From IMG/VR virus record IMGVR_UViG_2695420644_000002: a stretch of DNA of 11,469 nucleotides. One strand, written 5' to 3'. Below, one piece after another: positions 3,040 to 10,861 of the stretch. This stretch comes from a virus. Lineage: Duplodnaviria > Heunggongvirae > Uroviricota > Caudoviricetes. The translations under genes were made by a program, and so were the position numbers. The notes under the pieces are model-generated. The model was not told the origin of the DNA. It did no database searches and was given only the letters and a program-made list of their open reading frames with translations. Within the stretch, counting starts at the first letter, position 1, and every line of letters begins with the position of its first letter.

Positions 3040-3691
3040 GATTGGCCTGCGTTCAAAAATAAAATGGCATAGCGGGATATGCCGCGAGCGGGCGATTTTA
3101 GGTGATTTTGTGATCTGTTTAAATGTTTTATTGCAATCGGTTGCTAAATTGCATTTTAAGAGTGGTGCCTCCAGGTGACGTTAACCAGTTAACAATTAAC
3201 GCCGGATACAGAGAATCCACCCATAACACTGTTTTTGGTTTTAACTGTTCCGCGTGCGCTCAGCCGCATTCACCACATCACAAAATTCACTTTAAAAAGG
3301 GCGGCAGAGCAGTCACGGAGTAAAACTGATACCGCCAAACGTCACCAGAAAATTGATAACAGAGGGCGTTGCAGCGGGGTTGTCACTTAAGCGTATGGTC
3401 AACCTGACAACCCGGTGTCCTCAACGGGGAANGNNTAACCCCGCCATACTTACCGCCGCGCCATTTCGCGGGTTGCCACAACCGGAAGCGCACGGTCGAC
3501 GAAAATTTAACGACAGGCTATCTATGAACCAGCTACCTCGCCGTGCGCTTTCGCGTTATGGTCTGACTTTTCAGGGAAATATCCTTTCAGTAAACTGTCA
3601 GTTCCGGATGCGCACCCGTGTCCGGCGCACGCACTCCACCTCACCCGTGGAGAACTCCTTAATTACTAACCTTAGCTTTGTTGATTAGCTA

Positions 3692-3910
3692 CTAACGCGG
3701 GTATGTAATCATTCTGGCAATGCTTAATGCCGCTGCTTTTTCCAGATTGGTGATATCCTGCTCCAGAGCGGACAGATTTTCAGCCTGCTTAGCCCTGGCT
3801 TCATTAGCCCATTTCAGATCCTGCGCTGCATTAATTTTCTGGCGCATCCACTCATAAAGTTCATCATCGGTATAGTCTGGCGCGATGATGACGGGTTCTC
3901 GTTTCTGCAT
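3692..3910 (-). CDS. Hypothetical prophage small protein (72 aa), predicted helical C-terminal half
   Basis: ATG at 3910 preceded by GAGGAA 7 nt upstream; product MQKREPVIIAPDYTDDELYEWMRQKINAAQDLKWANEARAKQAENLSALEQDITNLEKAAALSIARMITYPR. Last gene of a leftward three-gene string downstream of the repressor. Function not recognised; a size similarity to Rac KilR (73 aa) is only a coincidence-level hint. Confidence 0.55.
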   Translation of the reverse strand: MQKREPVIIAPDYTDDELYEWMRQKINAAQDLKWANEARAKQAENLSALEQDITNLEKAAALSIARMITYPR

Positions 3911-3939
3911 ACTGATTCCTCGCGGTGCTGTTTCGCTTA

Positions 3940-4068
3940 TCAGCCGTTAGATTTTGCCGAACTGGAAAGCGCCTGTTTAAACTCACTGAAGCTGAGAGCT
4001 TCTTCGCCTTCGGCAAGGCCTTCGAAGTATTCTTCGTAAGCCTTTTCCATGATTGTGTCGAAATCCAT
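3940..4068 (-). CDS. Hypothetical prophage small acidic protein (42 aa)
   Basis: Not in the supplied ORF track (below its length cutoff). ATG at 4068 with AGGTGAG 6-7 nt upstream and TGA at 3940-3942; product MDFDTIMEKAYEEYFEGLAEGEEALSFSEFKQALSSSAKSNG (10 acidic vs 3 basic residues). Starts 1 nt after the stop of the upstream ORF. Confidence 0.45.
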   Translation of the reverse strand: MDFDTIMEKAYEEYFEGLAEGEEALSFSEFKQALSSSAKSNG

Positions 4069-4069
4069 A

Positions 4070-4225
4070 TCACTCACCTGAGTTTCTTTCCAGCCAGCGA
4101 CGGGCACCATTTTCGGTTTTAAACGTTTTGCTTTTGGTATACGTCATTGCGGTGAACGTGCCGTCCTGGTTTGGAAACACGCCGTACACCAGAGATTCGT
4201 TGTTGCCAAGATCGATAGTATCCAT
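4070..4225 (-). CDS. Hypothetical prophage small protein (51 aa), Rac ydaF/ydaG-neighbourhood type
   Basis: Likely start is the ATG at 4225 with GAGG 5-8 nt upstream, giving MDTIDLGNNESLVYGVFPNQDGTFTAMTYTKSKTFKTENGARRWLERNSGE. The track ORF 4070..4303 begins at a TTG and is probably an over-extension. Confidence 0.5.
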   Translation of the reverse strand: MDTIDLGNNESLVYGVFPNQDGTFTAMTYTKSKTFKTENGARRWLERNSGE

Positions 4226-4303
4226 GCTGACCTCATTTCCCCTTAACGCTGGGGTAGCGGAACTGTTTGCTGAGAACACCGTGCGGTGTGTTGATGCAAA
4301 CAA

Positions 4304-4400
4304 GATTAGCCATGACTAACATATCGGTCAAGTGATTTTGTATGCTATAGCTAACATAATTGATGTGGTAAAAGATAACTCATTGATGATGTTATCTTTT
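4304..4400. promoter_or_regulatory. Operator/promoter-like region between the repressor gene and the leftward small ORFs (OL/PL-like), with a 10-bp inverted repeat over the repressor stop codon
   Basis: ATGACTAACA at 4312-4321 recurs at 4858-4867 on the other side of the repressor; GATTAGC at 4304-4310; TAGCTAACA at 4348-4356. Perfect inverted repeat AAAAGATAAC (4370-4379) / GTTATCTTTT (4391-4400) with an 11-nt loop. Possible leftward -35 TTGACC (minus strand, 4331..4326) and weak -10 TAATCT (4308..4303). Confidence 0.35.
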
Positions 4401-4799
4401 ATTTGTCCGCTGACGGGCTTTTAGTAATTCTTCAAAGAGTTTATTGAAGTTTTTTACTCGAGCTCGCATTTCGGCGAGCTGGGTATCCTGTTCTGATTCT
4501 GGCAGTGCATTAAACAGCTCAAGGAGCTCTAGTTCTTTGGGGGATAAGGCAACTGGCTTCTCAACAGGTGGTGTTGGTTGCTTGTCTTCATCGCCAAATA
4601 GAATCCATGTTGGTGAGCATTGCAATACTTTGCTGAGGGCAAAAAGGTTCTTCCCTGTAGGTTCACTATCACCCCGTTCCCATTGTGATACAGACACATG
4701 GGAGATTTTCAGGGCTTTAGCAAGAGACCTTTGGGTGTGTTTGAGGTTTTTCCGACGATACCTGATGCGTTCGCCGATAGTTAAATTTTTTGTTTCCAT
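4392..4799 (-). CDS. Prophage repressor, HTH XRE/cI-like (RacR-like), no peptidase domain
   Basis: 135-aa product METKNLTIGERIRYRRKNLKHTQRSLAKALKISHVSVSQWERGDSEPTGKNLFALSKVLQCSPTWILFGDE... shows the classic phage-repressor HTH signature (Q-x-x-V-S-x-WE-x-G...L-x-C-S-P-x-W-I/L). Divergent from a Cro-like gene across an 83-bp intergenic region containing palindromes. Confidence 0.8.
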   Translation of the reverse strand: METKNLTIGERIRYRRKNLKHTQRSLAKALKISHVSVSQWERGDSEPTGKNLFALSKVLQCSPTWILFGDEDKQPTPPVEKPVALSPKELELLELFNALPESEQDTQLAEMRARVKNFNKLFEELLKARQRTNKR

Positions 4800-4882
4800 A
4801 GTTAGCTAATGCTAAATCGTATTGACTATGTTTTTGTTAACATCTATCTTGTTAGTTATGACTAACAATAAAGGTGTTTTAA
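4800..4882. promoter_or_regulatory. Divergent promoter/operator region between the repressor and the Cro-like gene (OR-like)
   Basis: Candidate rightward sigma70 promoter: -35 TTGACT 4822-4827, 17-bp spacer, -10 TATCTT 4845-4850, then AAGGTG 6 nt before the ATG at 4883. Perfect inverted repeat TTGTTAG-N6-CTAACAA at 4849-4868 overlaps the -10. Palindrome TTAGCTAA at 4802-4809 abuts the repressor start codon. Confidence 0.5.
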
Positions 4883-5113
4883 ATGCTTAAAACTGACGCT
4901 CTTTTGTATTTCGGTTCAAAAACAAAACTTGCACAAGCAGCAGGTATTCGTTTGGCTTCGCTTTATAGCTGGAAAGGGGATTTAGTTCCCGAAGGTCGCG
5001 CGATGCGTCTACAGGAGGCATCTGGCGGGGAGCTTCAGTATGATCCCAAAGTTTATGATGAATATCGTAAGACGAAGCGGGCGGGGCGGTTGAACAATGA
5101 AAATCACTCCTGA
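4883..5113 (+). CDS. YdaS-family Cro-like HTH protein
   Basis: 76-aa product MLKTDALLYFGSKTKLAQAAGIRLASLYSWKGDLVPEGRAMRLQEASGGELQYDPKVY... fits the YdaS/Cro-like pattern (KLA..G.....L..W......P...A..L......GG.L). First rightward gene opposite the repressor, with an AAGGTG RBS. Confidence 0.65.
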   Translation: MLKTDALLYFGSKTKLAQAAGIRLASLYSWKGDLVPEGRAMRLQEASGGELQYDPKVYDEYRKTKRAGRLNNENHS

Positions 5114-5618
5114 ACAGGCTCGTGAGGCTCTGGATGCCTGGATATGTCGACCAGGAATGACACAGGAGCAGGCGACGATATTAATCACTGAAGCATTCTG
5201 GGCTTTGAAAGAGCGCCCGAACATCGATGTTCAGCGTGTCACATATGAAGGTGGCGCGATTGATCAGCGAGCGCTTGGCGTTAATCGAGTGAAGATATTT
5301 GAACGCTGGAAGGCTATCGACACCAGGGATAAGCGTGAAAAGTTCACGGCGCTAGTGCCTGCAATTATGGAGGCTATCCGGATTAATGATTTCAGGTTGT
5401 ATCGTGAAATTACTGACGGAAAAAGCATCACGTGCATGATCGCCGGGTTAAACAAAGAATATGGCGATGTGGTGGAGTCCGGACTGCTTTTTGCTGATCC
5501 TGCCGTAGTGGATCGTGAAACTGACGAACTTATAGAAAAAGCAATTGCTTTCAAACTTGCGTATCGACAGCAATACCAACAAAAAGCTGGATGGAATTAT
5601 GAGCCTTCTTTTTGCTGA
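5097..5618 (+). CDS. YdaT-family protein (prophage cII-position regulator, reported toxic on ectopic expression in Rac)
   Basis: 173-aa product MKITPEQAREALDAWICRPGMTQEQATILITEAF...VKIFERWKAIDTRDKREKFTALVPAIMEAI... aligns with my recollection of K-12 YdaT (MKI...W..P.G...KIF.RW....LLPAI). Overlaps the preceding gene by 17 nt and the next by 20 nt. Confidence 0.6.
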   Translation: MKITPEQAREALDAWICRPGMTQEQATILITEAFWALKERPNIDVQRVTYEGGAIDQRALGVNRVKIFERWKAIDTRDKREKFTALVPAIMEAIRINDFRLYREITDGKSITCMIAGLNKEYGDVVESGLLFADPAVVDRETDELIEKAIAFKLAYRQQYQQKAGWNYEPSFC

Positions 5619-6203
5619 ACGCCCACTGGTTATAAACACGCAGCTGGCAATGAAAATTGGCTTAAACGAAGCCATTGTTTTGCAACAACTGCACTACTGG
5701 TTGAGAGATACCAACTCCGGCATGGAATGTGATGGTGTTCGCTGGATTTATAACACAACGGAACAATGGCTGGAACAGTTCCCATTCTGGTCAGAGTCAA
5801 CGTTAAAGCGCGCGTTTGCAAGTCTGAAAACGCTGGGGCTTTTGCGTTGTGAAAAGCTCAATAAATCAAAGCGCGATATGACCAATTTCTACACGATCAA
5901 CTATGGGAGCGAGCTTTTAGATGGTGGCAAATTGAGCGAATCCATCGGTTCAAAATGCGCCGCTCCATCAGGTCAAAATGACACGATGGAAGAGGTCAAA
6001 ATGAAACGCTCCATTGGTTCAAAACGACCCAATGTCATCGGGTCAAAATGGCCTGATGATCTTACAGAGAATACAACAGAGATTACTACAGAGAATAAAA
6101 ACACTTTTCGTCCGGAAGCTTCGCAACCGGACCCGCAGACGACTGAACAGGATTTTTTAACCCGGAACTCCGACGCGGTTGTGTTTAGTGCGAAAAAACG
6201 CCA
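5599..6203 (+). CDS. Lambda O-like replication initiator (Rac ydaU position), 3'-truncated at N 6204
   Basis: Probable start ATG 5599: MSLLFAERPLVINTQLAMKIGLNEAIVLQQLHYWLRDTNSG...LKTLGLLRCEK..., an N-terminal winged-helix-like domain followed by a low-complexity linker encoded by the iteron array (repeated IGSK motifs). The track ORF starts further upstream at 5545. The frame continues into unrelated terminase sequence after the N at 6204. Confidence 0.6.
5941..6099. repeat. Iteron array: five direct repeats at 23-24 bp spacing plus three 12-bp repeats (candidate prophage replication origin inside the O-like gene)
   Basis: Core TCAAAATG at 5950-5957, 5973-5980, 5996-6003 and 6043-6050, with variant TCAAAACG at 6019-6026; unit consensus about tccatcGGTyCAAAATGac. 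Followed by ACAGAGA(A/T)TA repeats at 6064, 6076 and 6088 in a 68% AT stretch. Confidence 0.6.
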
Positions 6204-6205
6204 NA

Positions 6206-6592
6206 GGGGCATCCGTCTACGGAAAGCCTGTGGCCAGCATGCCACGTAAGCGAAACAAAAACGGGGTTTACCTTACCGAAATTGGTACGGATACCGCGAA
6301 AGAGCAGATTTATAACCGCTTCACACTGACGCCGGAAGGGGATGAACCGCTTCCCGGTGCCGTTCACTTCCCGAATAACCCGGATATTTTTGATCTGACC
6401 GAAGCGCAGCAGCTGACTGCTGAAGAGCAGGTCGAAAAATGGGTGGATGGCAGGAAAAAAATACTGTGGGACAGCAAAAAGCGACGCAATGAGGCGCTCG
6501 ACTGCTTCGTTTATGCGCTGGCGGCGCTGCGCATCAGTATTTCCCGCTGGCAGCTGGATCTCAGTGCACTGCTGGCGAGCCTGCAGGAAGAG
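6206..6592 (+). CDS. Lambda-type terminase large subunit (gpA-like), C-terminal fragment
   Basis: Translation ...KPVASMPRKRNKNGVYLTEIGTDTAKEQIYNRFTLTPEGDEPLPGAVHFPNNPDIFDLTEAQQLTAEEQVEKWVDGRKKILWDSKKRRNEALDCFVYALAALRISISRWQLDLSALLASLQEE matches the C-terminal region of phage lambda terminase large subunit as I recall it. Bounded by N at 6204 and NN at 6594-6595, so it lacks both its N-terminal ATPase part and its last ~25 codons. Confidence 0.8.
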
Positions 6593-6595
6593 ANN

Positions 6596-7255
6596 GCCAT
6601 GCTCGACTATCCGGAAGTGGTCGTGCGCTTAACGCTGTGGTGTATCGTTGTTGGCCTCTATCCAACCTTGCTGATGACGTTAATCGGCGTGCTGTGGTTT
6701 CCCAGTCGTGCCATTTCGCAAATGCATCAGGCGCTTAATGATCGGCTTGATGATGCCATTAGTCACCTGACAGACAGCCTCGCACCGCTACCCGAAACGC
6801 GGATTGAAAGAGAGGCGCTGGCGCTACAAAAACTCAATGTCTTTTGCCTCGCGGACGATGCCAACTGGCGAACTCAAAACGCATGGTGGCAAAGCTGCGT
6901 GGCAACGGTAACCTACATTTACTCGACGCTGAATCGCTACGATCCCACCTCTTTTGCTGATTCTCAGGCAATTATTGAATTCCGACAAAAATTAGCTTCA
7001 GAAATCAACAAGCTGCAGCATGCCGTTGCTGAAGGTCAGTGCTGGCAAAGCGACTGGCGGATCAGTGAAAGTGAAGCGATGGCGGCACGGGAATGTAACC
7101 TGGAGAATATCTGCCAGACGTTGTTACAACTGGGTCAGATGGACCCGAATACGCCGCCAACGCCCGCAGCCAAACCGCCATCAATGGCCGCCGATGCTTT
7201 TACCAATCCAGACTATATGCGCTACGCGGTAAAAACGCTGCTCGCCTGTTTGATC
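6596..7255 (+). CDS. FUSC-family (fusaric acid resistance / aromatic acid exporter-like) inner membrane protein, internal fragment
   Basis: Translation AMLDYPEVVVRLTLWCIVVGLYPTLLMTLIGVLWFP...PDYMRYAVKTLLACLI: a hydrophobic segment, a long soluble linker, then the characteristic start of the second membrane domain. Which E. coli paralogue is not determinable from memory. Confidence 0.55.
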
Positions 7256-7258
7256 NGT

Positions 7259-7873
7259 TGCGCCGTAGCCCTGTACCACGTTCAGCACGCCCGCCGGAAT
7301 ACCGGCTTCCAGCGCCAGCTCACCCAGGCGGTCAGCGGTCAGCGGGGAGAGTTCTGACATCTTCAGCACCGCAGTATTGCCCAGCGCAAGACACGGCGCG
7401 ACCTTCCATGTGGCGGTCATAAACGGCACGTTCCACGGCGATACCAGCGCACAAACGCCTACCGGTTGCACCAGCGTGTAGTTGAGCATCTTGTCGTCAA
7501 CCGGATAGGTCTTGCCGTTCATCTGCTGGCAGACTTCCGCGAAAAATTCAAAGTTGTGAGAAGCGCGTGGGATCAACACATTTTTGGTCTGATGGATCGG
7601 CAGGCCCGTGTCCGCGGTTTCCATCGCGGCGATCTCAGGCACGTTCTGGTCGATCAGATCGCCCAGACGGCGCATCAGGCGCGCACGCTCTTTCATCGGC
7701 AGATTGGCCCATTTCGGGAACGCCTCTTTCGCTGCCGCTACCGCCTGATTGATCTCCGCTTCACCGCCAGAGGCCACATCCGCCAGCACTTCACCCGTCG
7801 CCGGATTGGTGGTCTGGAAGTAGTCGTTACCTGCAACATTTTTGCCGTTGATCCAATGATTTACTTTTTTCAT
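7259..7873 (-). CDS. hpaE: 5-carboxymethyl-2-hydroxymuconate semialdehyde dehydrogenase HpaE, N-terminal ~205 codons (3'-truncated at N 7256)
   Basis: Translation MKKVNHWINGKNVAGNDYFQTTNPATGEVLADVASGGEAEINQAVAAAKEAFPKWANLPMKERARLMRRLGDLIDQNVPEIAAMETADTGLPIHQTKNV...VVQGYGA matches HpaE of the E. coli 4-hydroxyphenylacetate meta-cleavage operon. GAGGAA RBS; start ATG overlaps the hpaG stop (ATGA at 7870-7873). Confidence 0.9.
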
Positions 7874-9159
7874 TTCGCTGTTTCCTCACTCACAATTCGG
7901 TTCACCAGGCAGCCCACGCCTTCTACTTCCACCACTACTTCATCGCCAGGCACCACGTCAGATAAGCCTTTTGGTGTGCCGGTGGCGATCATGTCGCCCG
8001 GATTCAGGGTCATAAATTCGCTTAAGTAGGCGATCAGGAAGGGCACGCTGAAGATCAGATCGGCGGTGGTGCCTTGCTGGCGTAACTCGCCGTTGACGAA
8101 GGTGCGAAGGGTCAGATTATGCGGGTCCGGGATCGCCTCTTTCGGCACGATGGTTGAAAGCATCGGCGTCAGTCCGTCGCGGCTTTTTACCCGCAGGTTA
8201 GGGCGGTAGTAGTTTTCCAGATAGTCGCGAATGGCGTAGTCGTTACACACGGTGTAGCCCGCGACATAATCCATGGCATCGGCTTCGCTGACGTTACGCG
8301 CCTGTTTGCCAATAACTACCACCAGCTCCGCTTCATAGTGCATGTATTCAATATTGTTTGGACGCACGGAGGTCTGGTTATCGCCAGTGAGGGTATTTGG
8401 CGCTTTCAGGAACACCAGCGGTTCTTCCGGTGGCTTAAATTCCAGTTCGCTGGCGTGGTCGGCGTAGTTCAGGCCGAGGGCAAACAGCGTGCCGTGCGGG
8501 TGTGGCTGCGTTGGGAAGCTCTTGCGCGTGGTCACTTCACGTTCGTCCACTACCGGATTTTCCAGCGGCGGGAAACCTTCTGCGAGAACACGAACGCGAT
8601 CGCCTGGCTGTATTTCCACGCGCGCCTGTGGCGTGCCGAGCAGAATGGCATCGCCTGGATTCAGTGTGGCAAATTCGCTCAGGGCGCTCAGCAACTGCGC
8701 GGCGTTACGTTGTAAATCGGCGGTATTCCAGTGATCGGCAGGACGCCCGTTGATCTCGGTATAGATGGTCAGATTATCGACATTGCTGAGAGCCACGGTT
8801 TCGCCAATGGGGCAGAATCCATCACGACATTTTGCTTTGATTGCCGGGCGGTAAAAGCTCTCTTCCGGCAGGCTGACGTCGTTAGCCAGCGCATATCCGG
8901 CGATGTACTCTGCCGCATCTTCTTCACGTACTTTCGTCGCCGTTTTTCCCACAATCAGCGCAACAGTCGCACCGCTCAGTACCTTTTCACCCTGTGGAAA
9001 GGGAATCGGTTCACCGCAACCAATCACCGTATTGCGCGGTTTAATAAACCAGACCGCAGTTTTAGGCGGGGCTTTGTAGGGGGATTGCTGGAACGCTTCC
9101 TGCCATGCATCAAGTTGGCTGCGATGGTTCAACGCTACGGCGAAGATAGTGCCTTTCAT
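7870..9159 (-). CDS. hpaG: Bifunctional 2-oxo-hept-3-ene-1,7-dioate isomerase / 5-carboxymethyl-2-oxo-hex-3-ene-1,7-dioate decarboxylase HpaG (complete, 429 aa)
   Basis: Translation MKGTIFAVALNHRSQLDAWQEAFQQSPYKAPPKTAVWFIKPRNTVIGCGEPIPFPQGEKVLSGATVALIVGK... with two FAH-like repeats. ATG at 9159 has GAGGAG 5 nt upstream; the track ORF adds two codons from a GTG at 9165. Length matches HpaG. Confidence 0.9.
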   Translation of the reverse strand: MKGTIFAVALNHRSQLDAWQEAFQQSPYKAPPKTAVWFIKPRNTVIGCGEPIPFPQGEKVLSGATVALIVGKTATKVREEDAAEYIAGYALANDVSLPEESFYRPAIKAKCRDGFCPIGETVALSNVDNLTIYTEINGRPADHWNTADLQRNAAQLLSALSEFATLNPGDAILLGTPQARVEIQPGDRVRVLAEGFPPLENPVVDEREVTTRKSFPTQPHPHGTLFALGLNYADHASELEFKPPEEPLVFLKAPNTLTGDNQTSVRPNNIEYMHYEAELVVVIGKQARNVSEADAMDYVAGYTVCNDYAIRDYLENYYRPNLRVKSRDGLTPMLSTIVPKEAIPDPHNLTLRTFVNGELRQQGTTADLIFSVPFLIAYLSEFMTLNPGDMIATGTPKGLSDVVPGDEVVVEVEGVGCLVNRIVSEETAK

Positions 9160-9430
9160 TACCACTCCTCGGATTCGATCATCTTAATCATTAATATGTT
9201 AATGATTACTTTTATTCCCGATTGCGTAGTTTGGCAAAAGTAAGTGATGTAAATGTGATCTAATTAACAAACTATTTACATTTAAGGATAATAAAATATT
9301 AAATATCAGTAAGTTAATAAAATATCATCAATTTTGATAAAATCAGGAATTGCAGGGGCAGCGCAGTCCCGGTAACGTGACGATTAACTGTTTCTATATT
9401 AATGATTTTGAATTTTTCAGGGGAAAGATA
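9160..9430. promoter_or_regulatory. hpaG-hpaR divergent control region: HpaR operator-like palindrome, CRP-like site, AT-rich tract
   Basis: Perfect inverted repeat TAATCATTAA-TATG-TTAATGATTA at 9185-9208 just upstream of hpaG. CRP-like TGTGA-N6-TAACA at 9254-9269 (one mismatch to TGTGA-N6-TCACA). The whole region is strongly AT-rich. Confidence 0.55.
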
Positions 9431-9877
9431 ATGCACGACTCACTAACCATTGCGTTGCTCCAGGCGCGAGAAGCGGCGATGAGTTATTTTCGCCCAATCG
9501 TTAAACGGCATAATTTGACTGAGCAACAGTGGCGCATCGTGCGTATTCTGGCGGAAAGCCCATCAATGGATTTTCACGATCTGGCGTATCGCGCCTGCAT
9601 TTTGCGCCCAAGCCTGACCGGGATCCTCACGCGGATGGAACGCGACGGTTTAGTGTTGCGATTAAAGCCGATCAATGATCAGCGGAAGCTCTATATCTCG
9701 CTGACCAAAGAGGGGCAGGCGCTGTATAACCGCGCCCAGACACAGATTGAAGAAGCCTATCGGCAGATTGAAGCTCAGTTTACTGCCGAGAAAATGCAAC
9801 AGTTAACCCATCTGCTAGAGGAATTTATTGCTCTGGGTAATTCCCGACAAGAAGACATCCCGGGCGATAATGAATAA
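9431..9877 (+). CDS. hpaR: MarR-family repressor HpaR of the homoprotocatechuate (hpa) meta operon (complete, 148 aa)
   Basis: Translation MHDSLTIALLQAREAAMSYFRPIVKRHNLTEQQWRIVRILAESPSMDFHDLAYRACILRPSLTGILTRMERDGLVLRLKPINDQRKLYISLTKEGQALYNRAQ..., a MarR-type winged helix, divergent from hpaG. ATG at 9431 preceded by AGGGGAAAG; the track ORF starting at 9350 is an upstream over-extension. Confidence 0.9.
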   Translation: MHDSLTIALLQAREAAMSYFRPIVKRHNLTEQQWRIVRILAESPSMDFHDLAYRACILRPSLTGILTRMERDGLVLRLKPINDQRKLYISLTKEGQALYNRAQTQIEEAYRQIEAQFTAEKMQQLTHLLEEFIALGNSRQEDIPGDNE

Positions 9878-9904
9878 CTTTTTAGTATCTGATAACCAGC
9901 GCNT

Positions 9905-10861
9905 GAAACATGGCATTACGACTTCCATCATCGGCGCGGAGTGATTGTTGAAGGCGGCAAGATGAGTAACCTTGATGCGATGGATATTACCGCGCCGTAT
10001 ACGCCTGGAGCGCTGCGCGGCGGCAGCCATGTGCATGTCTTTAGCCCGAACGGTGAAAGGGTGAGCTTTACCTATAACGACCATGTAATGCATCAACTCG
10101 ATCCGGCGCTGGATTTGCGAAACGTCGGTGTTGCTGCACCGTTTGGCCCGGTCAATGTACAAAAGCAGCATCCGCGTGAGTACAGTGGTAGCCACTGGTG
10201 CGTGCTGGTGAGTAAAACCACGCCCACGCCGCAGCCAGGCAGTGATGAAATCAATCGTGCTTATGAAGAAGGATGGGTAGGAAATCACACGCTGGCGTTT
10301 ATTGGCGACACACTTTCGCCAAAGGGCGAGAAAGTGCCGGAGCTGTTTATCGTTGAGTTACCGCAAGATGAAGCTGGCTGGAAAGCGGCAGGTGATGCGC
10401 CGTTAAGTGGAACGGAAACCACCCTGCCCGCGCCACCGCGCGGCGTCGTGCAGCGACGTTTAACCTTTACCCACCATCGGGCTTATCCGGGGTTAGTCAA
10501 CGTCCCGCGCCACTGGGTGCGCTGTAATCCGCAGGGTACGCAAATCGCGTTTTTAATGCGTGATGATAACGGCATTGTGCAACTATGGCTTATCTCGCCA
10601 CAGGGCGGCGAGCCGCGCCAGTTAACCCATAACAAAACGGATATTCAGTCTGCATTTAACTGGCATCCATCAGGAGAATGGTTGGGCTTTGTGCTGGATA
10701 ATCGAATTGCTTGTGCCCATGCGCAAAGCGGCGAGGTTGAGTATTTAACCGAAAACCACGCCAATCCGCCTTCTGCGGATGCCGTGGTCTTCTCACCGGA
10801 TGGTCAATGGCTGGCGTGGATGGAAGGTGGCCAGCTGTGGATCACCGAAACTGATCGCTAA
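9905..10861 (+). CDS. yidR: YidR-like DUF3748 beta-propeller protein, 5'-truncated at N 9903
   Basis: Frame is open from 9896 through the N with no plausible start until the internal GTG at 9941 or ATG at 9962. Translation ETWHYDFHHRRGVIVEGGKMSNLDAMDITAPYTPGALRGGSHVHVFSPNGERVSFTYNDH...GQWLAWMEGGQLWITETDR; convergent with yidQ. The yidR symbol is from memory of the K-12 yidQ neighbourhood. Confidence 0.6.
   Translation, partial: ETWHYDFHHRRGVIVEGGKMSNLDAMDITAPYTPGALRGGSHVHVFSPNGERVSFTYNDHVMHQLDPALDLRNVGVAAPFGPVNVQKQHPREYSGSHWCVLVSKTTPTPQPGSDEINRAYEEGWVGNHTLAFIGDTLSPKGEKVPELFIVELPQDEAGWKAAGDAPLSGTETTLPAPPRGVVQRRLTFTHHRAYPGLVNVPRHWVRCNPQGTQIAFLMRDDNGIVQLWLISPQGGEPRQLTHNKTDIQSAFNWHPSGEWLGFVLDNRIACAHAQSGEVEYLTENHANPPSADAVVFSPDGQWLAWMEGGQLWITETDR

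Follow-up and report, generated by a model that had tools for sequence, protein, structure and literature searches.

Between the stop codon of a phage-type repressor gene and a set of small leftward open reading frames, a stretch of viral DNA of 11,469 nt (IMG/VR record IMGVR_UViG_2695420644_000002; the whole stretch is called the window below) carries a short interval in which repeated half-sites, a leftward promoter and a perfect inverted repeat lie close together. The original prediction described this interval as OL-like and left it undecided whether the inverted repeat is a weak terminator of the repressor transcript or a protein-binding site, and the question raised by the locus is what each of these elements does. 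Our answer, held with good confidence, is that positions 4303–4401 comprise two adjacent elements, i.e., the terminator hairpin of the repressor gene dicA, followed by the promoter dicBp with its DicA operators.

The sequence of 4230–4450 is 100% identical to the dicA–ydfA intergenic region of the Qin prophage carried by E. coli K-12, and the K-12 annotations at the matching locus are dicC, dicA, ydfA, ydfB, ydfC and dicB (gene names were carried over with the offset L002 = window + 1771). This identity and these annotations place the interval between dicA and ydfA of a Qin-type prophage, where dicBp is located. The gene order, taken from the K-12 annotation and from profile searches, is dicC / dicA / ydfA-ydfB-ydfC / DicF. 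The repressor gene dicA (4392..4799, minus strand; recognised as an ORF, by Pfam and by the K-12 annotation) encodes a 135-aa CI-like HTH repressor, which is identical to K-12 DicA and matches the Pfam families HTH_3 (E = 1.3e-16, 60.8 bits vs. a gathering score cut-off of 23) and Phage_CI_repr (26.6 vs. a cut-off of 22). On the plus strand lies dicC (4883..5113), the Cro analogue, which is supported by Pfam P22_Cro (E = 1.7e-11) and the K-12 annotation. The early-left operon, i.e., ydfA, ydfB, ydfC and DicF, lies downstream of dicA and reads away from the repressor gene; its first gene as part of the dicB operon is ydfA (DUF1391; 4070..4225, minus strand; Pfam DUF1391 E = 5.4e-28 and K-12 annotation), and the DicF RNA is found at 3299–3350 on the minus strand with 76.7 bits. 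The prophage segment stops at 3163, just past DicF, and the genes that come after DicF in K-12, dicB and ydfD, are missing.

The OL-like region that had been predicted past the repressor gene proves to be dicBp of a Qin-type prophage, directed leftward into ydfA-ydfB-ydfC-DicF. The dicBp region with the dicA hairpin is already known as a system, and the locus presents no new kind of element; the dicBp promoter–operator region was reportedly described for cryptic prophage Qin in E. coli K-12 by Bejar, Bouche and Bouche in 1988. The same dicBp region was treated more recently in Ragunathan et al. 2023 (PMC10448788), and how DicA, DicC and Rem regulate the system is being actively investigated. 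Compared with K-12 Qin, the 4230–4450 sequence and the flanking genes are the same, and the element itself shows no difference; the operon continues to dicB in K-12, whereas in the window it is cut at 3163. Two points are added here to the known picture. One is the placement, by comparative covariation, of two DicA operators at dicBp, where the location of the DicA site was given as "unknown" (PMC7567609), and the other is the connection of a published but undiscussed Term-seq 3′ end with the dicA hairpin.

The arrangement supports the view that the region is a lambdoid PL/OL-type control region with dicBp as the PL analogue. As in lambda, where t_imm follows cI-rexAB ahead of OL/PL, the repressor gene and the early-left operon are co-oriented with a terminator between them, repressor operators that agree with the ones at OR overlap the promoter, and the Cro analogue is divergent. 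However, no sequence homology to lambda exists, the operator is a palindrome of 18–20 bp (TGTTAGY-N4-RCTAACA) unlike that of lambda, and neither an N gene nor nutL can be seen downstream of dicBp. The P22 immC region (c2, cro, OL/PL) shares the divergent layout, but differs in the C-terminal domain of the repressor and in the operator sequence, and the early-left genes of the Qin-type locus are ydfABC-dicF-dicB. DicA itself is short (135 aa) and has been described as devoid of the RecA-cleavable C-terminal domain (PMC10448788).

The promoter was evaluated from its sequence and from its conservation. The leftward hexamers that had been proposed, TTGACC at 4331..4326 and TAATCT at 4308..4303 (both on the minus strand), are located exactly there as the −35 and −10 elements of dicBp with a spacer of 17 bp, and both hexamers recur at a fixed spacing in heteroimmune relatives. 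The promoter had also been called weak, in agreement with a match of 8 of 12 positions to the consensus; a simple promoter scan made no call, since TAATCT matches TATAAT at only three of six positions. To compare relatives, loci sharing DicA or the conserved ydfA leader were gathered, which include several immunity types. The −35/spacer/−10 frame is kept in 91 of the 94 distinct related upstream sequences, spanning at least three repressor specificities. Among these 91 sequences, the −35 hexamer is TTGACC in 67, TTGCCT in 12 and TTGACG in 10; 81 have a spacer of 17 bp and 10 one of 18 bp; and the −10 hexamer is TAAATT in 48, TAATCT in 36 and TAATAT in 5. The same frame is found in Citrobacter and Serratia relatives, as TTGCCA-17-TAATCT and TTGCAA-17-TAACAT.

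Downstream of the −10 element, the conserved motif CATCAA follows at a distance of 5–6 nt among the relatives, and in heteroimmune phages the sequence similarity starts exactly at this motif. The predicted start of dicBp is the C/A of CATCAA (4295..4296, minus strand), 7–8 nt past the −10 element. RNase III is reported to cut between positions 813 and 814, which yields a DicF species of ~190 nt (PMC10448788), and back-calculation from this numbering places +1 approximately 2–9 nt past the −10 element. We thus infer a start at about 4295/4296, with which the RNase III numbering is consistent, albeit approximately. The "1,608-nt transcript" figure of the same report (PMC10448788) was also considered for checking the start, and was set aside because its arithmetic is ambiguous.

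The 5′ leader of the ydfA-dicF-dicB operon (4226..4294, minus strand) is near-identical across immunity types; taken as 4226–4296, it is better conserved than the promoter and nearly identical in heteroimmune prophages. The Citrobacter and Serratia leaders keep small hairpins and a GTTCCGC...GCG motif. As an RNA, the leader folds no better than its shuffles (z = 0.34), and its conserved hairpins are all small; RNAalifold gives a weak consensus whose covariation term is slightly unfavourable (+0.53 kcal/mol). No Rfam hit was obtained for the leader at E ≤ 1, and a put- or nut-like antitermination RNA was rejected, as the leader shows no likeness to the HK022 PL–nun interval (putL). The conservation of the leader may simply mark the boundary of a recombination module.

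That DicA represses dicBp is established genetically, as dicBp is induced 22-fold on deletion of dicA and 165-fold by the Rem antirepressor, and the authors expect DicA operators overlapping dicBp (PMC10448788). In a Reg-Seq study, a DicA site at dicB was rated as low-evidence, with its location unknown (PMC7567609). The reference for locating such sites is Oc, the DicA operator between dicA and dicC, which reads TTGTTAGTTATGACTAACAA at 4849..4868 in the window. This is the reverse complement of TTGTTAGTCATAACTAACAA, a 20-mer which is bound by DicA in vivo and in which a single A-to-C change abolishes DicA binding, whereas two weaker look-alikes in the dicA–dicC region, Om and Oa, are unbound by DicA (PMC3441716).

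All three of the half-site-like sequences originally noticed, i.e., GATTAGC (4304–4310), ATGACTAACA (4312–4321) and TAGCTAACA (4348–4356), are present at these positions, and they belong to two predicted operators which match the DicA-bound Oc and covary with the repressor type. The putative proximal OL-type operator occupies 4304..4321 (GATTAGCCATGACTAACA on the plus strand, TGTTAGTCATGGCTAATC in the dicA sense). It fills the promoter spacer and overlaps the −10 element, in line with the original suggestion that the shared 10-mer would fall inside the promoter. When the window was searched with the Oc-type 18-mer TGTTAGTNATNACTAACA at no more than three mismatches, the only matches were 4304–4321 and 4850–4867, vs. 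a chance expectation of 0.04, and two matches were reached in 0 of 200 shuffles. Of the 16 positions that the Oc 18-mer specifies, the proximal site matches 13, and the two are also paired by the repeats D4 and I4 of a repeat search. The bare 7-mer half-site is not enriched in the window (30 matches vs. 22 ± 4.8 expected). The putative distal OL-type operator (4339..4356; TGTATGCTATAGCTAACA on the plus strand, TGTTAGCTATAGCATACA in the dicA sense) lies 7 bp upstream of the −35 element and coincides with the direct repeat D7 and the palindrome I6 of the repeat search; one of its half-sites is good, and the other is degenerate.

The comparison of immunity types carries the assignment of these two sites. 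In type A, to which the window belongs, Oc reads TTAGT-CATA-ACTAA, the distal site TTAGC-TATA-GCATA and the proximal site TTAGT-CATG-GCTAA, such that the inner base is a pyrimidine (TTAGY) in 6 of 6 half-sites. Types B and C show TTAGR ... YCTAA at Oc, the distal site and the proximal site, with a purine as the inner base in all 12 half-sites, and type D has a different core (TGAG-TTTT-CTCA) at each of the three sites, with Oc reading TTGAG-TTTT-CTCAA and the distal and proximal sites being close variants of it. The region of the recognition helix reads SHVSVSQWERG in type A, AHVTISQWERD in types B and C, and SGSSISLWESD in type D. Since the specificity bases at Oc and at both OL-type sites change jointly with the repressor type, the comparison supports reading both sites as putative repressor operators. 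In all types the proximal site takes up the spacer and runs into the −10 element, and the distal site abuts the −35 element in every immunity type, 35–36 bp centre to centre. Lambda OL has three operators (OL1–OL3), whereas only two Oc-like sites are recognisable here between 4226 and 4391. A separate observation concerns the "Oa"-like site by the repressor start codon (4800–4822; L091 and L095), which is identical in types B and C, whose Oc sequences differ; these two types also have the recognition-helix sequence AHVTISQWERDETQP in common. The identity of Oa fits with DicA not binding Oa and points to a mosaic joint within OR.

The distal site deserves more caution than the proximal one. Because 5 of its 16 specified positions differ from Oc, and because DicA leaves the weaker Om and Oa unbound (PMC3441716), the distal site is possibly weak or, by itself, without function. 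The same two observations, together with its failure to appear among the matches at up to three mismatches, would also be accounted for if only the proximal site worked and the distal, TAGCTAACA-containing site were a decayed, non-functional relic. Against this, the site is kept at the same position relative to the proximal one in every immunity type, its sequence changes with the repressor specificity, and in type B it is the best palindrome of all (TTGTTAGATCAATCTAACAA). A relic is thus conceivable but rather doubtful, and we continue with two putative operators, of which the distal is presumably the weaker.

Upstream of the promoter with respect to leftward transcription, i.e., at the 3′ end of dicA, lies the inverted repeat. 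The original prediction gave it as a perfect repeat of 10 bp with an 11-nt loop, formed by AAAAGATAAC (4370–4379) and GTTATCTTTT (4391–4400) on the plus strand. These arms and the loop are correct, but the length is not, as the perfect arms are 11 bp long (4369–4379 and 4391–4401), so that the dicA 3′-end hairpin covers 4369..4401 on the minus strand. The repeat spans the repressor stop, as had been stated, with the TAA of dicA (4394–4392, minus strand) inside the right arm; in the RNA, the 5′ arm of the hairpin holds the last two dicA codons and the stop codon. The core stem of the RNA is GAUAAC/GUUAUC, with AAAA before it and UUUU after it. By chance, a window would contain 0.185 perfect inverted repeats with arms of 10 bp or more and a loop of 3–20 nt, and at least one occurs in 16% of simulations; the inverted repeat alone is only modestly unusual, given this expectation. 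As minus-strand RNA, 4360–4410 folds with −12.2 kcal/mol (z = −5.6), which 0 of 200 shuffles reach, and the core stem alone, without the A/U-tract pairs, gives −5.2 kcal/mol. Apart from this repeat, the window holds just one inverted repeat that is perfect over 10 bp and has a short loop, at 9185–9208 (TAATCATTAA, 4 nt, TTAATGATTA); it lies in the hpaG–hpaR intergenic region and is plausibly an HpaR operator.

Both strands of the hairpin fold, and the layout of AAAA, stem and UUUU, as well as a 3′ end on the dicA strand, is shared with intrinsic terminators of the bidirectional type, from which the present hairpin differs in that its stem is unusually AU-rich and only 4 U follow on the dicA strand. 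The element may be bidirectional. In the plus-strand direction, a better T tract (TTTTATTTG) comes after this hairpin, and a second terminator-like hairpin on this strand (4405–4418, then TTTTAGTAAT) lies inside dicA in the antisense direction. However, for the strand opposite to dicA the Term-seq table contains no 3′ end whose coordinate starts with 16483, 16484 or 16485 (PMC7815308). A rightward antisense promoter with CATAAT (4354–4359) as the −10 element of a short hairpin RNA was considered and rejected, as the scan made no call, the hexamer is unconserved, relatives having CATGAT or CATTTT, and no 3′ end in this coordinate range is listed on that strand. The Rho-termination table of the same Term-seq study contains an antisense region at MG1655 1648695(−), opposite ydfA/ydfB, which by coordinate offset corresponds to about window 4038 (+) and implies a Rho-terminated antisense transcript toward dicBp (PMC7815308).

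The transcript end on the dicA strand is documented. In supplementary file 1 of Adams et al. 2021, a Term-seq study, the dicA 3′ end is classed as "primary" (PMC7815308). It is located at MG1655 1648368 (+), which is position 4365 on the minus strand of the window (...GUUAUCUUUUACCAC-3′); the mapping of coordinates from MG1655 to the window was checked, and the format of the Term-seq strings (50 nt + 3′ end + 10 nt) was confirmed on sgrS and thrL. This 3′ end is listed three times in the file, which has three growth-condition tabs, with read counts of 4704 and 2354 in two of the entries (PMC7815308). The end lies 9 nt past the GUUAUC of the core stem, and 4 nt past the extended 11-bp stem.

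Variation within the repressor subfamily, for which 20 distinct sequences were compared, indicates what is preserved in the hairpin. The non-coding 3′ arm is invariant save for one C-to-T change, and the flank downstream of it diverges freely. In two sister forms, loop changes add three stem pairs, GCA...TGC (−10.4 kcal/mol) in one and ACA...TGT (−8.9 kcal/mol) in the other, and the two forms differ from one another by one compensatory G-C to A-U pair. Three pair positions vary one-sidedly, and two of these, in the core arms, give G-U pairs only in the dicA-sense RNA; this covariation sample is shallow, with few independent events among close relatives, and its statistics are weak. Types C and D possess unrelated hairpins with A- and U-tract flanks in the same interval, where no equivalent hairpin was found in the type B E. 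coli relatives, in Citrobacter or in Serratia.

Returning to the alternative between a weak terminator and a protein site, the reading as a weak intrinsic terminator or 3′-end-defining hairpin of the dicA transcript is favoured, because the Term-seq end adjoins the hairpin, the variants pair only in dicA-sense RNA, and other immunity types have analogous hairpins. The contrary reading takes the 11 bp not as an RNA element but as a DNA palindrome bound by a dimeric protein, be it DicA, DicC or a host factor; in its favour, the palindrome is perfect and the regulatory region around it is AT-rich. Symmetrical changes are expected of the binding sites of dimers as well, and TGTTATC loosely resembles the half-site TGTTAGT. 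However, the arms are everted relative to the operator half-sites and stand 11 bp apart, and this failure of orientation led us to reject the hairpin as an operator; a Fur-box-like reading of GATAAC...GTTATC was likewise dropped on inspection, as the spacing is 11 bp, not 1 bp. Moreover, two independent variants, an A-to-G change in the 5′ arm and a C-to-T change in the 3′ arm, would spoil the DNA symmetry but remain paired, as G-U, in the dicA-sense RNA only. The loops of the variants turn into additional stem pairs, a transcript 3′ end maps beside the palindrome, and the hairpins in the same slot of other immunity types have no sequence in common with the operators of those types. We therefore regard a protein-binding site in place of an RNA hairpin as very improbable.

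How the 3′ end at 4365 arises is a narrower question. Judged by the usual criteria, the hairpin makes a poor intrinsic terminator. Its stem is not G+C-rich, and the terminator scan, which needs at least three G-C pairs, did not call the hairpin, whose weak core (−5.2 kcal/mol) contains two; the U tract UUUUACCAC has 4 U and continues with non-U bases (ACCAC). These features would also suit a hairpin which only blocks 3′-to-5′ exonucleases, such that 4365 is left by the processing of transcripts that extend further, whether Rho-terminated or read-through, and an end 4 nt past the 11-bp stem is at a distance which is typical of exonuclease stalling, too. Yet the 9 nt between the core stem and the end fit intrinsic termination as well, the sister variants combine stronger stems with 5–6 U, and in types C and D the corresponding slot holds classic A-tract/stem/U-tract hairpins. 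In addition, dicA is missing from the table of Rho termination regions in the same study (file 2, PMC7815308), although this is a thresholded list and absence from it is weak evidence. Exonuclease trimming thus appears unlikely as the origin of the end, and intrinsic termination at the hairpin is the inferred source.

A more speculative idea starts from the hairpin of the window and K-12 being the weakest of its family (core −5.2 vs. −8.9 and −10.4 kcal/mol; U4 vs. U5–U6). Together with the position of the dicA stop codon within the 5′ arm, this makes it conceivable, though quite unlikely in our estimate, that the hairpin is a deliberately leaky, translation-sensitive terminator, in which a ribosome at the UAA masks the 5′ arm and allows read-through into ydfABC-dicF. 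If true, such read-through would pass dicBp even with DicA on its operators, and would supply DicF at a basal or stationary-phase level independently of Rem; Rem-independent basal or stationary-phase DicF has been reported (PMC10448788).

Taken as a terminator hairpin followed by an operator-controlled promoter, the interval probably works as follows. The leftward dicA mRNA ends at the AU-rich hairpin, mostly at 4365, ~9 nt past GUUAUC, and the hairpin would thereby shield the toxic dicB operon, whose dicB/DicF inhibit cell division, from transcription of the repressor gene, a role played by t_imm in lambda. About 35 bp further on, dicBp, as a sigma-70 promoter, would drive ydfA-ydfB-ydfC-DicF(-dicB). 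DicA dimers on the proximal operator (4304–4321) are predicted to cover the spacer and the −10 element and so to exclude RNA polymerase, while the weaker distal operator (4339–4356) by the −35 element probably assists repression, and the Cro-like DicC presumably competes at the same sites.

The window as a whole is a mosaic, in which prophage DNA is limited to 3163–6209. Its segments 399–1520, 3163–6209 and 7257–9905 comprise dapF/lptM, an MFS transporter gene, the 3-kb Qin-type piece and hpaG-hpaE-hpaR, and of these, dapF/lptM in one flank and hpaG-hpaE-hpaR in the other correspond to E. coli loci that are unlinked; no complete genome covers at least 80% of either flank. Because the flanks are unlinked in complete E. 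coli genomes, and Ns are present at 3432–3437, the window is suggested to be a chimeric or misassembled contig, which leaves the finding at dicBp unaffected. Two database entries met among the relatives are also worth recording. In phage PhiR42_1 (L001), a homologue of ydfA (DUF1391) at 6471–6680 is annotated as "head-DNA stabilization protein D", which is likely a database artefact, and the E. coli-type dicA region seen at 99% identity on a contig of 2.5 kb from a "Collinsella sp." MAG (L004) probably reflects contamination.
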